From assembly GCF_022846255.1 (NCBI RefSeq), contig NZ_AP025682.1: DNA of 64,000 nt. One strand, written 5' to 3'. How positions within the stretch are numbered: position 1 is the stretch's first letter; the number at the start of each line of letters is the position of its first letter. The DNA comes from Escherichia coli (lineage in GTDB: Bacteria > Pseudomonadota > Gammaproteobacteria > Enterobacterales > Enterobacteriaceae). The notes under the pieces are model-generated. The model was not told where the DNA came from and did no database searches. It worked only from the letters and a program-made list of their open reading frames with translations. Positions 899-29,097 of this stretch are shown here, one piece after another. The position numbers and the translations under genes were made by a program.

Positions 899-2248
899 AT
901 GCCACTAATTATCGTTGTGGCAGGGATTGCTTTACTCCTGCTTTTAACCATAAAAATTAAGCTTAATACGTTTGTTTCGTTAATTATTGTCTCGATTGCT
1001 GTCGCCATCGCCAGTGGTATGGATTTGAGTAAAGTCGTCACCTCAGTCGAATCCGGACTTGGCGGTACGCTGGGCCATATTGGTTTGATATTTGGCTTCG
1101 GTGTTATGCTCGGTCGCTTGCTGGCCGATGCGGGGGGGGCGCAGCGAATAGCGCTGACCATGCTGAATTATTTCGGGAAAAATAAACTTGACTGGGCAGT
1201 GGTCTGTTCGGCGTTTATTGTCGGTATCGCACTTTTTTTCGAAGTCGGTTTAATTCTTCTGGTACCTATTTTATTCGCTATTGCCCGTGAAGCAAAAATA
1301 TCACCGATGTTTATGTGTGTGCCGATGCTTTCCGGTTTGCTGGTCGCACACGGTTTTTTGCCGCCGCACCCCGGCCCGACAGTAATCGCCAGAGAATATG
1401 GTGCTGATGTAGGATTGGTACTGATATACGGTATCATTGTCGGCATTCCAACCTTTATTCTTTGCGGCCCGGTATTGAATAAATTCTGCCAGCGCATTAT
1501 TCCGGAAGCCTTTAAAAAAGAGGGGAATATAGCCTCTCTCGGCGCGACCCGCCGGTTCAGCGAAAGCGAAATGCCTGGCTTTGGGATCAGTTTTCTCACG
1601 GCAATGCTGCCGGTGATCCTGATGGCGGTTGTCACCATCATCCAGATGACTCATGCCAAAAGTGCCGCGGATTCAGGCTTATTCTACAACGTGCTACTGT
1701 TCTTAGGTAATTCGACGATCGCCATGCTGATTTCACTGCTGTTCGCGATCTATACCATGGGCCTGGGGCGCGGGAAAACAATCCCTGACCTGATGGATTC
1801 TTGCGGAAAAGCTATCGCGGGTATTGCCGGTCTGCTGCTGATTATCGGTGGTGGTGGTGCATTCAAGCAAGTTCTCATCGACTCTGGCGTTGGTCAGTAT
1901 ATTTCCACCCTGGTTTCGGGTATGGATATTAACCCGATCCTGATGGCCTGGGGCGTGGCCGCATTCCTGCGTATTTGTCTGGGTTCAGCCACCGTCGCGG
2001 CGATCTCTACCGCCGGTCTGGTCATCCCATTGTTGGCAGTACATCCCAATACCAACCTGGCCTTGATTACGCTGGCTACCGGTGCCGGATCCTGTATTTG
2101 TTCTCACGTTAACGATGCCAGTTTCTGGATGATTAAAGACTTTTTTGGCCTGACCACCAAAGAAACGCTGTTATCCTGGACGCTGATGTCCACACTCTTA
2201 TCCATCAGTGGGCTGATTTTTATTCTGCTCACCAGCTTAGTTTTATAA
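899..2248 (+). CDS. GntP-family (gluconate/sugar-acid:H+) permease
   Basis: 449-aa polytopic membrane protein with GntP-family sequence character; RBS-like GAGGA upstream of ATG. Confidence 0.85.
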
Positions 2249-2398
2249 TCGGGTTCTTGCCAGTGAGCCAACCTGTTGTTCACTGTCCCCCATAATTTAG
2301 TGAGTGACGGCAACCGTCTGCACGGTGACGAATCGCTGGCGATCAAAAAGGGGCGATATTGAACCGTCGATTATGCTTGTTGAGTGTACTCTCAGTAA

Positions 2399-2435
2399 TA
2401 CTGTAAAGCCGGAGCATGTCTCCGGCTTTACAGTA
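2399..2435. repeat. Perfect 16-bp inverted repeat with 5-nt loop (TACTGTAAAGCCGGAG-catgt-CTCCGGCTTTACAGTA)
   Basis: Read directly from sequence; lies between GntP gene and regulator gene; no T-tract on either side, so not a canonical intrinsic terminator. Confidence 0.6.
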
Positions 2436-2594
2436 TGGGGGAACAGCGGGCGATCGCTCAAATGGTATGCTGGTTTATTTCATGTAAAAGAATAAAATAT
2501 CTGTATAAAATCATGCCACTGGCAATCTGCATCAACTCTCCGGGTAAACAGGGTTAAGATGAGCATTTCCCCGGTTTAATACAGGTATACAAAA

Positions 2595-3581
2595 GTGGAT
2601 AGAGATCAAACAAACAGCAGCCTGTTCAATGATGATCCCGTGCTTCATGCAACATGGCTGTACTATCAGGAAGGCAAAAGCCAGACTGAAGTTGCAGCTA
2701 TCATGGGGGTGTCCCGCGTCACGGTTGTCAAATACCTGCAAACAGCCCGGGAAAATGGACTGGTTCATATCAACCTGGATGTGAATGTCTTTGGCTCTAT
2801 CGACGCTGCTTTGCAAATTCGCGATAAATTCAATCTCCTGAGAGTGATCATCGTGCCGGATGGCGAACATGCCGGAAAACGTGATGATACAAAGCTGATG
2901 CGGACTCGCCTTTCACGTGCCGGTGGCATGTATCTGAATCAGGTGATTGAGAATGGTGATGTGCTGGGGGTTGCCTGGGGAAGAACAATCCATCAGATGA
3001 GCAAAACCATGACGCCGAAGTCATGTAAAAATGTCACCGTTATACAGATGCTCGGTTCCATGCCATCTCAGCCAGACCTGACGATCATTGAATCCTCATC
3101 GCAAATCGCCTACAAGCTTTCAGGCCGTGTCGCTTCGCTGCACGTGCCCGCCGTGGTATCAAGCGCCAGACTGGCCATGGAGTTACAGGCAGAGCCTATT
3201 ATTCGATCGAATTTTGACGTTCTGACTCGCTGTACGAAAGCCTTTTTTGTCGTGGGTAACACGCTTGATGAAAATCCCCTGATTCGGGTGGGCGTGCTGA
3301 ATAAGAAGGAAATGCAGACGTATCGAGATTTAGGCGCAGTAGGTGTCATTTGTGGCCGCTTCTATGACAAGGAAGGGATGCCCGTCGTGGCTGATGTTGA
3401 CCAGCGTATTCTGGGAATCAGTCTGGCTCAGTTAAGGCAGATTGAACGGAAGATCTTTCTTGCTGGTGGCGAAAGAGGCTATGACGCAACGTTGGGTGCC
3501 CTGCTGGGAGGATATGTCACTGACCTGATTGTTGATGAAGGAACGGCAGAGTTTTTGCTGGCGTGTGAATTACCACACTAA
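2595..3581 (+). CDS. SorC/DeoR-family transcriptional regulator (N-terminal HTH, C-terminal sugar-phosphate-binding domain)
   Basis: 328 aa; HTH segment SQTEVAAIMGVSRVTVVKYLQTARENGLV followed by a SorC-type effector domain. Confidence 0.8.
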   Translation: MDRDQTNSSLFNDDPVLHATWLYYQEGKSQTEVAAIMGVSRVTVVKYLQTARENGLVHINLDVNVFGSIDAALQIRDKFNLLRVIIVPDGEHAGKRDDTKLMRTRLSRAGGMYLNQVIENGDVLGVAWGRTIHQMSKTMTPKSCKNVTVIQMLGSMPSQPDLTIIESSSQIAYKLSGRVASLHVPAVVSSARLAMELQAEPIIRSNFDVLTRCTKAFFVVGNTLDENPLIRVGVLNKKEMQTYRDLGAVGVICGRFYDKEGMPVVADVDQRILGISLAQLRQIERKIFLAGGERGYDATLGALLGGYVTDLIVDEGTAEFLLACELPH

Positions 3582-4626: not shown

Positions 4627-4729
4627 AAATAACTCCTTGTGGTAGTTATAATCAATCGTTGTGGACAGAGGGCATAACAGCCATTCCTCGAATGGCTGTT
4701 ATATGTTATTAATTAAAATAAAGCTGTAA

Positions 4730-7850: not shown

Positions 7851-8291
7851 GTGTAAAGTAATTTGTGATGCATGTAGATTTTTTGAACTGGAGAAAATTA
7901 AAAATAATGTTGTATGGAGTCATGATCTTTACAGGAATTAGTAGGGTGCATTCCTGTTATTTATATAAAATTCATTGTATTACATAAAAATGACGGTGCT
8001 GCGCGGGGAATTGTCTCGGGCAATCTTAGACGAAAGGAAGTATTGAAGTGACAGAATAATCTACATTTTTTATACATGTGTATTTTTCTGTTGTCTTTTG
8101 TTTTTAGCGTATGGTGTTTTTATGCCGATGTCTAATAGACAGATAGATTCGAGGGCCAACAGCCCCATTATCATGATGGAGCAACAGAGGTGAGTCTAAC
8201 GTTTCCGTACTTCTTATCGATCGGCACTAACAATCCTTTGTGATAACGGTATTCCCACACAGAGAAACCCACGTACCTGAATAAAAAAAAG

Positions 8292-8720
8292 ATTACTGGT
8301 GTGGAAATGGGATTAACAGATTATGCCATCAAATCGGATGGTAATGAGGTCAATAATCCTCGTCATCTCATTAACGTCAACTGTAATCTGCGACGCAAAT
8401 TAGCCAGCATGATGAATAATAAACACAATCTGGCAAGAGCGTTAGGTGATGCTGATTGGCACGGCTTTATCAACAAACTGGAGTACAAGGCAGCCGAAAA
8501 AGGCGTTCATCTGGTAAAAATCGACCAGTAGTTTGTCTGTTCGAAAAGCTGCTATTGTTGTGGTTACAAAATGTTGCTTCAAAAACGGATCTGGCGATGC
8601 CCTGAATGCGGTGTTGAACATGACCGGGATATAAATGCGGCAATCAACATAAAACTTAAAGACATACAGGAATTAAAGGCGGCGGGCCCCGTCGTCTCTG
8701 TCTATGGAGGAGCTGCGTAA
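8292..8720 (+). pseudogene. IS200/IS605-family TnpB (RNA-guided nuclease) remnant: C-terminal fragment with internal frameshift/deletion
   Basis: Translation ITGVEMGLTDYAIKSDG...ARALGDADWHGFINKLEYKAAEKGVHLVKID matches the TnpB RuvC region; the zinc-finger segment RCPECGVEHDRDINAAINI follows in another frame; N-terminal ~200 aa absent. Confidence 0.6.
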
Positions 8721-8984
8721 ACCCGTCGTACAGACGGTTGCAGCCTGAAAAGTGGGAAGGCCTTGCCCGATTGGGCGGGGAGTAGTCACCCTTGGAGTCA
8801 TTTTTATCCGGTGTATTAATATGCTCCTAATAGTTAATCTGGTTATAATATTTTTTTTTTGATTATGATCACGAAAATATCTCGGTTTTTATTTGCAAAA
8901 CTTGAAACGTGAATCCAAAAAAGATAAATATTTGTCCGCAGTGACTTCTTTTCTGTTGAAAAGTTCAATCTAAAGGGCAAAAAA

Positions 8985-27163: not shown

Positions 27164-27534
27164 GTAATGAAGGGCCCGGTTTGCAGTTGCCGGGTCTGTC
27201 TCCTGTTCCCAGAGTTTTATTTATCTTCATCACTTACAGAGAATGCTCAACATTTGCTAGTCTTTTCCTGTCCAGGTATCCAAAGTCTCCTCCCAAATAT
27301 CCTGGATACTGGCTTAGACAAAATGAGATTATATTTTATAGTAAATTATATCATAACAGCTTTTGTTAAGGATGCTGTGTAAGATAAGATATATGGGTTA
27401 GAGGCATATTCTTTTGCAATCAGGAAGAAGATAATCACTGATGTTATCGGATATGTAGTAGTATTCGGTATAGCTATTTAGAGAAATTTGTGCCACAATT
27501 TATTATAGAGTTTAAAGAAAAATATATTGAAAAT

Positions 27535-27560
27535 AAAATCCGGGCTATTGCCCGGATTTT
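27535..27560. terminator. Hairpin terminator just past the integrase stop (T-rich on both strands)
   Basis: AAAATCCGGGC-tatt-GCCCGGATTTT, flanked by T-runs. Confidence 0.6.
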
Positions 27561-27561
27561 A

Positions 27562-28824
27562 TTATTTTAATGGATTATTAATCTTTGCATATTCAAATGG
27601 ACTGATAAATCTTTCTCTATTTGCATCCAGAAAATCGGCCCACCATTGTAGCATCAGTCGACGTTCTTCCAGATGTTCTGCTTTATGAATGTAAGCAGCA
27701 CGTACACCATTACGCTCCTGATGGCTCATCTGACGTTCCACAGCATCGCGGGACCACAAACCTGATTCAATCAATGCACTGCACGCCATCGCCCGGAATC
27801 CATGGCCACAGACTTCCTGGGTTGTGTCATATCCCATAACCCTCAGGGCTTTATTTACGGTATTTTCGCTGATTGGTTTACGTGGGTCATGTGCCCCCGT
27901 AAAGATCAGACCATTTTCACCAGCCCATGTCTGAAGTTCTGTCAGTATGGCTACAGCCTGTTTGCTGAGTGGCACAAGATGTGGTGTTCGCATCTTGGAG
28001 CCTCGGTGTGAGAATTTTACGCCTGGCAGAGGTTCGCGTTCGGCTGGAATAGTCCACATGGCATTGTCAATATCAATTTCAGACCAGCGGGCATATCTGA
28101 GTTCACTGGAACGAATAAAAACCAGTAAATTCAGCATAACTGCCCGTCGGGTGACAGGCTGGCCTTTATAACCGCCAATACGCGACAGAAGTTCAGGCAG
28201 ACGTGAAAGATCCAGAGCTGGGCGATGCTGGCGTTTTACCGTAGTCAATGCACCAGCCATATCCAGAGCCGGGTTATATCTGATGATGCCAGACTGTACG
28301 GCATAACGCATTACAGCAGATATTCTTTGCTGCAGACGACTGGCGATTTCATAAATTTGTTTAGCTTCTGCAGCACGAACAGGGATAAGCAGGTCCGGGG
28401 TACTGAGTGTTGTGATATCCCGGTTGCCGATAAAGGGGAATACGTGTGTCTCGAGGCTTTTGAGTACTTTATCGCTGTGTGATTGTGCCCATTGTTTATT
28501 ACTGGCATGCCAGCGTCGTGCAATATGTTCAAAAGAGAGCTGTAAATCAGGGACTACTTTTTTAGCTCTTTTCTGTTCGCAAGGGTCAATCCCCTCCGAA
28601 ATCAGTTTTCGGGCCTCATCCCGTTTTGTACGAGCTTCGGAGAGAGAAACTTCTGGATACACACCAAGTGCCAGAGTCTTCTCCTTACCCAGAATACGAT
28701 AACGGAGACGCCAGTAACGGGAACCATTAGGATGAACCAGCAGGAACATGCCGGCCCCGTCAGTGAGTTTATAAGCCTTGTCAGTGGGCTTTGCAGCCCG
28801 GATTTTTGCGTCAGTCAGCGCCAT
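27562..28824 (-). CDS. int: Tyrosine recombinase, P4-type integrase (island integrase)
   Basis: 420 aa, MALTDAKIRAAKPTDKAYKLTDGAGMFLLVHPNGSRYWRLRYR... N-terminal arm-binding region typical of P4-like integrases; start lies 198 bp from the tRNA-Phe 3' end. Confidence 0.9.
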   Translation of the reverse strand: MALTDAKIRAAKPTDKAYKLTDGAGMFLLVHPNGSRYWRLRYRILGKEKTLALGVYPEVSLSEARTKRDEARKLISEGIDPCEQKRAKKVVPDLQLSFEHIARRWHASNKQWAQSHSDKVLKSLETHVFPFIGNRDITTLSTPDLLIPVRAAEAKQIYEIASRLQQRISAVMRYAVQSGIIRYNPALDMAGALTTVKRQHRPALDLSRLPELLSRIGGYKGQPVTRRAVMLNLLVFIRSSELRYARWSEIDIDNAMWTIPAEREPLPGVKFSHRGSKMRTPHLVPLSKQAVAILTELQTWAGENGLIFTGAHDPRKPISENTVNKALRVMGYDTTQEVCGHGFRAMACSALIESGLWSRDAVERQMSHQERNGVRAAYIHKAEHLEERRLMLQWWADFLDANRERFISPFEYAKINNPLK

Positions 28825-29021: not shown

Positions 29022-29097
29022 TGGTGCCCGGACTCGGAATCGAACCAAGGACACGGGGATTTTCAATCCCCTGCTCTACCGACTGAGCTATCCGGGC
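29022..29097 (-). tRNA. pheV: tRNA-Phe (GAA anticodon)
   Basis: Reverse complement reads GCCCGGATAGCTCAGTCGGTAGAGCAGGGGATTGAAAATCCCCGTGTCCTTGGTTCGATTCCGAGTCCGGGCACCA, the canonical E. coli tRNA-Phe. Confidence 0.95.

Follow-up and report, generated by a model that had tools for sequence, protein, structure and literature searches.

Between yjhF and yjhU (mtnR) of Escherichia coli stands a long inverted repeat, and it raises two questions: what kind of element it is, and what, if anything, it does at present. An earlier note, made from the letters alone, had described a perfect 16/16 dyad at 2399-2435 that stands isolated and is not a classic intrinsic terminator, and had proposed an RNA stability element, a protein-binding palindrome or a mobile miniature repeat. 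We followed up these proposals in the window (the whole 64-kb stretch of DNA that was analysed) and in homologous loci of other genomes. The features needed for the argument, all on the plus strand, are:

899-2248, plus strand: yjhF, encoding a GntP-family permease, the present upstream gene
about 2279-2385, plus strand: decayed 3' remnant of gss (glutathionylspermidine synthase/amidase), Gss residues 586-617 in two frames
2398-2414, plus strand: left arm of the dyad, ATACTGTAAAGCCGGAG, containing an A-tract AAA (2405-2407) and a G+C core GCCGGAG (2408-2414)
2405-2429, plus strand: core of 10 pairs common to all four allele types, AAAG(C/T)CGGAG-N5-CTCCG(G/A)CTTT
2415-2419, plus strand: loop CATGT (CATGC or CCTGT in homologues)
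2420-2436, plus strand: right arm of the dyad, CTCCGGCTTTACAGTAT, with a G+C core CTCCGGC (2420-2426) and then an eroded T-tract TTTACAGTAT (2427-2436)
2554-2580, plus strand: predicted constitutive sigma-70 promoter of yjhU, TTAAGA-15-TTTAAT, 3' of the hairpin
2595-3581, plus strand: yjhU/mtnR, a regulator gene with a GTG start

A perfect hairpin between yjhF and mtnR

The dyad occupies the yjhF–yjhU spacer, and its counterpart in E. coli K-12 is on the minus strand at about 4520483-4520521 of NC_000913.3. Following yjhU, on the opposite strand, are the genes of the DHAP shunt (GRP transporter, ald2, mtnA and mtnK). The constitutive yjhU promoter TTAAGA-15-TTTAAT was predicted in a publication and matched to the window sequence (PMC3946193). 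A tRNA-Phe gene was identified at 29022-29097, and thus the yjh/mtnR genes may sit in a tRNA-Phe-linked island; in K-12 they are located elsewhere, next to the fec genes and IS1F. The annotation of near-identical strains has a TnpB/InsQ pseudogene fragment just past the mtnK promoter, corresponding to 8230-8748.

The two arms (ATACTGTAAAGCCGGAG-CATGT-CTCCGGCTTTACAGTAT) are complementary at 17/17 positions, so that the dyad is real and one pair longer (2398-2436) than had been noted. There are 149 nt between the yjhF stop (2248) and the dyad, and 158 nt between the dyad and the yjhU GTG (2595), in agreement with the spacings of about 150 and 160 bp given earlier. Both the A-tract and the T-tract are inside the stem (AAA-GCCGGAG...CTCCGGC-TTT). 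No perfect short-loop hairpin in the window is longer; the next has 14 bp, and the longest arm in 200 block-wise shuffles of the window was 7-13 bp. By our own arithmetic (64000 x 6 x 4^-16), chance would yield about 1e-4 perfect dyads with arms of 16 bp or more and a loop of 3-8 nt. The RNA fold of the dyad region has an energy of -39.3 kcal/mol, compared with a mean of -21.3 for dinucleotide shuffles (n=200; z = -6.25, 0/200 as good). The dyad is real and far beyond chance. It is also isolated, as claimed: a search of the 64-kb window for other copies with up to three mismatches gave only two weak, chance-level matches.

Two other perfect dyads were identified in the window. One, of 14 bp at 27532-27563 (AATAAAATCCGGGC-tatt-GCCCGGATTTTATT), has the textbook shape of a bidirectional terminator (A-tract, G+C stem, T-tract) and serves as an internal comparison. 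The other, of 13 bp at 4674-4702 (ATAACAGCCATTC-ctc-GAATGGCTGTTAT), is without a T-run; it is in the ald2/GRP transporter spacer of the DHAP-shunt operon and may be an intra-operon mRNA processing or stability hairpin.

Intrinsic termination needs a hairpin followed by a U-rich hybrid. The window allele has the G+C-rich stem and short loop of an intrinsic terminator (7 G/C-rich pairs in the 17-bp stem, 5-nt loop). Lacking is the U-tract. Terminators have about 5 or more U in the 8 nt immediately 3' of the stem, whereas in the window allele T makes up 4 of the 8 nt that follow the G+C core, and no T follows the full stem, and a simple terminator scan of the window found 0 sites at the dyad. The statement that no U-tract flanks the repeat is thus correct for the full 17-bp stem. 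The 149 nt that separate the hairpin from the yjhF stop are more than is seen for most terminators, which counts against the terminator reading. Given that yjhF and yjhU are both on the plus strand, no convergent transcription units meet at the hairpin, as they would at a bidirectional terminator; the sole promoter-like site on the minus strand is weak. An Rfam scan of 2200-2650 (E up to 10) gave three chance-level matches (E 4-10), none of them on the hairpin.

The hairpin derives from the 3' end of gss

Most of the 149-nt spacer after yjhF is a gss pseudogene fragment, as 2279-2385 aligns to the 3' end of that gene (77% nucleotide identity to K-12 gss, E 4e-8). The fragment, which is unannotated, lies between yjhF and the hairpin, and K-12 has it too. 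The remnant is frameshifted, because the protein match falls in two frames (Gss 586-607, FTVPHNLVSDGNRLHGDESLAIKK, and Gss 607-617, KRGDIEPSIML), and its stop codon has been lost.

A metagenome scan with the pattern GATAAAGNCGGAG-N5-CTCCGNCTTT gave five matches. Four of these, in contigs with unrelated contexts (L032-L035), have the identical core stem right after a stop codon, followed by a T-run. This independent occurrence indicates that the core stem is a generic terminator shape, and the four hairpins are ordinary terminators that converged on one stem. The fifth match (L036) is homologous to the window: its mtnR is 99% identical, DHAP-shunt genes are present, and its hairpin reads GATAAAGCCGGAG-CCTGT-CTCCGGC-TTTTTTGTC. 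The 38 codons before this hairpin encode the C-terminus of Gss (NCBIfam NF007801, E 8e-17, profile 582-618 of 619), a peptide 97% identical to K-12 Gss. An exact look-up of the L036 MtnR protein identified four further contigs (L039-L042), one of which is a 4.76-Mb NCBI contig. The gene order in L036 and L039-L042 is GST (yghU-like)–gss (619 aa, CHAP+GSP_synth)–hairpin–mtnR–DHAP shunt, with an identical spacer.

In these contigs 33 nt separate the intact gss stop from the hairpin, and in L039 the scan that was negative in the window calls it terminator-like (AAAGCCGGAGCCTGTCTCCGGCTTT then TTTGTCTT). The gss-linked orthologue (AAAGCCGGAG-CCTGT-CTCCGGCTTT, then TTTGTCTT) is a canonical Rho-independent terminator. 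The window dyad stands directly after the gss remnant and in this respect has the short distance to a sense-strand stop that is typical of terminators. Thus, the verdict "not a classic intrinsic terminator" holds for the window allele under strict criteria but fails for its orthologue behind intact gss, which is a textbook case. Given the gss fragment in the spacer, we infer that the module originated directly downstream of gss, the position it has in L039-L042.

In species-representative genomes scanned with YjhU as the query, homologous hairpins were identified in two Citrobacter genomes only, about 200 bp upstream of mtnR. In Citrobacter sp. On2M the genes are arranged as in E. coli, yjhF included. 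C. amalonaticus is without yjhF (upstream are an integrase and T6SS Hcp, effector and immunity genes), yet it keeps the hairpin and about 75 bp before it. The hairpin thus belongs to the mtnR module and not to yjhF. The upstream regions of the Providencia, Vibrio and Proteus homologues are unrelated and have no comparable hairpin.

Within E. coli, the 51-nt segment 2392-2442 was used as a blastn query (11-nt words, E up to 10). Of 5426 complete genomes, 1602 have the hairpin, each at a single locus (scored at two places, which are both strands of one palindrome), and it is absent from the other 3824 and from the plasmids of these E. coli genomes. The sets of genomes with yjhF, the spacer and yjhU are essentially identical.

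Four allele types can be compared. All keep the 10-bp core (2405-2429 in the window), which is the part shared with the canonical terminator allele; the loops vary (CATGT, CATGC, CCTGT), and so does the sequence after the core, given here with a TransTermHP-style tail score computed after the G+C core:

L036/L039 allele: TTTTTTGT after the core, 7 T in the first 8, tail score -5.5
On2M allele: TTTTTAGC after the core, 5 T in the first 8, tail score -4.6
C. amalonaticus allele: TTTATCAG after the core, 4 T in the first 8, tail score -3.9
E. coli allele: TTTACAGT after the core, 4 T in the first 8, tail score -3.6

The On2M hairpin was not called by the simple terminator scan. In C. amalonaticus (CTGATAAAG/CTTTATCAG) and in E. 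coli (CTGTAAAG/CTTTACAG) the left and right flanks are exactly complementary, and in the On2M and L036 alleles there is no pairing of the outer flanks. E. coli and C. amalonaticus are set apart by a paired one-base indel (an A on the left, a T on the right) that leaves the dyad perfect, and their DNA flanking the hairpin is about 25% different. This comparison of alleles rests on single-sequence folds, as a MAFFT five-sequence alignment left the right-arm indel out of register.

We consider it probable (about 0.7) that the dyad began as the terminator of gss, travelled with the mtnR/DHAP-shunt module and is now a relic, at most a leaky terminator or 3'-end stabiliser. What the data show is the homology, the origin of the hairpin, its single copy and the canonical terminator in the orthologue; termination or stabilisation today, and the mutational path, are our inference. 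On this reading the hairpin was the Rho-independent terminator of a gss gene once directly upstream of mtnR. The module would then have entered an E. coli island beside yjhF, carrying about 110 bp of the gss 3' end along with the terminator, and the gss fragment would have decayed after the move. The T-run seen in the intact-gene context is presumed ancestral. In E. coli the core (AAAGCCGGAG/CTCCGGCTTT) would have stayed intact and the T-run would have given way to a sequence complementary to the left flank (TTTACAGTAT), forming the 17-bp palindrome. In the lineages in which this gss copy was destroyed, it appears that the quasi-palindrome was "perfected" by template-switch events, at the cost of the T-run.

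The perfect palindrome probably arose, then, through quasi-palindrome template-switch mutation, hotspots of which have been described in E. coli (PMC7202029). The dyad resembles these hotspots in that paired arm changes keep or create symmetry (the A/T indel, and the replacement of the T-run by the flank complement), but differs in that the mechanism is here deduced from end states only. Paired changes made by template switching do not demonstrate that RNA structure is under selection.

The element belongs to a known kind, the intrinsic-terminator hairpin; it is an ordinary member of it, unannotated, with an unusually clear history. It is like Rho-independent terminators with a paired A-/U-tract in its G+C-rich stem, short loop, AAA/TTT pairing and site after a coding region, but differs in having three T after the core and a stem extended by six pairs that are not part of the A/T-tract. 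The hairpin of native K-12 gss (NC_000913.3 3136613-3136647; 5614-5648 in L037) is a perfect 15-bp dyad (CCCCGTACTGATTAT-gaaga-ATAATCAGTACGGGG) located 16 nt after the gss stop and, like the window dyad, is without a T-run. Its outer ACTGAT...ATCAGTA(C/T)GGGG is common to the C. amalonaticus and E. coli versions. Homology between this native hairpin and the dyad is not established, because the inner stem and loop are sequence-unrelated.

Present function and competing explanations

In a transcript that runs past the end of yjhF, a hairpin of about -30 kcal/mol would fold, with UUUACAGUAU behind it and only three U residues after the core. Weak termination is predicted, because the U-tract behind the hairpin is eroded. 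We expect no more of the element than leaky intrinsic termination and a block to 3'-exonucleases. Given that the predicted mtnR promoter is downstream of the hairpin, the latter would partly insulate mtnR from yjhF read-through. A role as an RNA stability element, one of the original proposals, is possible. Rho-terminated transcripts have processed 3' ends that are set by stable stem-loops (Dar and Sorek 2018, PMC6061677), and the dyad is comparable in being a strong hairpin without a U-tract 149 nt past a stop; however, the untranslated stretch here is not C-rich and G-poor (C 35, G 40 of 149). It is also reminiscent of REP/BIME elements, being a palindrome in the spacer of two co-directional genes and perhaps an mRNA stabiliser, but it is a single copy and has no family.

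Published maps of transcript ends place none at the site. In the accessible portion of the 3'-end tables of Adams et al. 2021 there is no end at K-12 position about 4520483-4520521, nor at native gss, and the nearest end in that portion is 4520003, inside yjhU. TERMITe has no entry at the hairpin site. A missing 3' end is weak evidence, as these genes are poorly expressed in the conditions used.

Less probable, though a real chance in our estimate, is that the ex-gss terminator has no present function at all in E. coli and persists because it is young and neutral. The eroded T-run, the clearly decaying gss remnant adjoining it and the lack of a 3' end in that portion of the published tables are consistent with this, as is the variation among E. 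coli genomes. Up to 619 of the 1602 genomes have one mismatch in the 51-nt segment, and in the three sampled it was in every case (3/3) G2425A, in the right arm. This change creates an uncompensated C.A mismatch in the G+C core, at a cost of about 9 kcal/mol; as it breaks the core stem without compensation, relaxed constraint is suggested. However, a 17-bp stem of about -30 kcal/mol blocks 3' exonucleases and pauses RNA polymerase, selected or not, and the 10-bp core is conserved in the four allele types while the flanks differ by about 25%.

We regard as improbable the converse, that the relic has been co-opted as a tunable insulator (its leakiness coupling mtnR to yjhF, with G2425A selected) or is a fragile site that shapes island deletions. 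Were co-option true, expression of mtnR (the DHAP-shunt repressor) would be tied to transcription of yjhF, a gene of the xylonate cluster, and the common G2425A allele would alter read-through and thus be a selected regulatory polymorphism. Were the fragile-site alternative true, a DNA-level palindrome would shape island deletions, as at the junction in strain 2452.

In that strain (L004/L007), homology to the window stops at 2435/2436, the last base of the 16-bp dyad. Past the junction, which is known from this one genome, is unrelated island DNA (GTPase and YfjI genes), and yjhU is missing. Microhomology was sought by searching the window for the DNA on the right side of the junction, which is absent from it. 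The palindrome may have been a deletion endpoint here, or the position is a coincidence. In strain SCU-316 (L008) the junction is a different one, inside yjhU.

A protein-binding palindrome, such as an auto-regulatory operator of MtnR or a site for another regulator, is very improbable, and we identified no support for it. The MtnR operator is not yet defined (PMC12632272), and the window has just three copies of the 8-mer CTGTAAAG, one in each arm and one at 7927, in the region of the mtnK promoter. However, this is the sole 8-mer that the dyad shares with the mtnK promoter, and the copy at 7927 is not conserved in C. amalonaticus (CCTGAGAACG; MtnR 98% identical) or Providencia. The block conserved in the three species around mtnK P1 has no CCGG-type motif. 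An MtnR operator defined by CTGTAAAG/CTTTACA in the mtnK promoter was considered and rejected, as the upstream copy is not conserved across the three mtnK promoters.

Arm-like sequences also overlie the predicted mtnR promoter, which would suit an operator. These are CTCCGGGTAAACAGGG (2538-2553) and, compared with GAGCATGTCTCCGGCTTTACAGTAT, GAGCATTTCCCCGGTTTAATACAGGTAT (2561-2588); they are degenerate direct copies of the right half of the hairpin and are only partly conserved in C. amalonaticus. Nevertheless, in On2M and L036 the outer arms either have another sequence or do not pair, an RNA hairpin and not an operator is what typically has contiguous 17-bp arms around a 5-nt spacer, and the identical core is found as ordinary terminators in unrelated contexts. 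In addition, published ChIP-exo of YjhU in K-12 yielded no peaks under the condition used (PMC6237786).

Some other sequences near mtnK were noted. A block found both at mtnK P1 of E. coli and in the hairpin arm of C. amalonaticus (TGATAAAGT) was rejected as chance; it coincides with a putative extended -10 element, given the position of the CRP site in PMC12632272. Two minus-strand palindromes in the mtnK promoter/leader, TACTTTA-cacatga-TAAAGTA (7860-7840) and TGATAA-gtcag-TTATCA (7828-7812), are in the block conserved among E. coli, C. amalonaticus and Providencia and are candidate MtnR operators. A CAAAT...ATTTG semi-palindrome has been described for ATCC 25922 (PMC12632272); the window allele is without it.

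A small RNA transcribed on the minus strand from TTGCCA-18-GATATT (2525 to 2496) and ending at the palindrome is slightly less credible again. The window shares this promoter-like site with L009 and L039, the L039 hairpin is terminator-like on the minus strand too, and G2425A would be a G.U wobble on a minus-strand RNA. However, the promoter match is weak (9/12) and of a frequency expected by chance, the putative body (2437-2455) is the least conserved part between alleles, and there is no Rfam match. The arm variants moreover disagree on the strand, in that the T-for-C in the left arm of C. amalonaticus is a wobble on the plus strand and a mismatch on the minus strand, the reverse of what G2425A would suggest.

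REP elements account for many of the long perfect palindromes between E. coli genes, but membership in a dispersed repeat family (REP/BIME-like or MITE), the mobile miniature repeat of the earlier note, can be dismissed as refuted: the genome-wide search found a single locus per genome and not the many copies of a generic repeat, the window has no second copy, and the hairpins in a plasmid collection are all orthologous copies.

Meaning for the mtnR/DHAP-shunt module

The conspicuous, unannotated palindrome in the yjhF–yjhU spacer of K-12 is explained as an ordinary terminator, a result of little general importance. Its analysis revealed an unannotated gss pseudogene fragment and provides a natural example of a terminator that would have decayed into a perfect palindrome once its gene was lost. 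For studies of MtnR regulation, the hairpin marks how far the control region of mtnR extends upstream. The gss fragment implies that extraintestinal E. coli owe their mtnR/DHAP-shunt module to a related enterobacterium, in which it lay on the chromosome directly behind gss.
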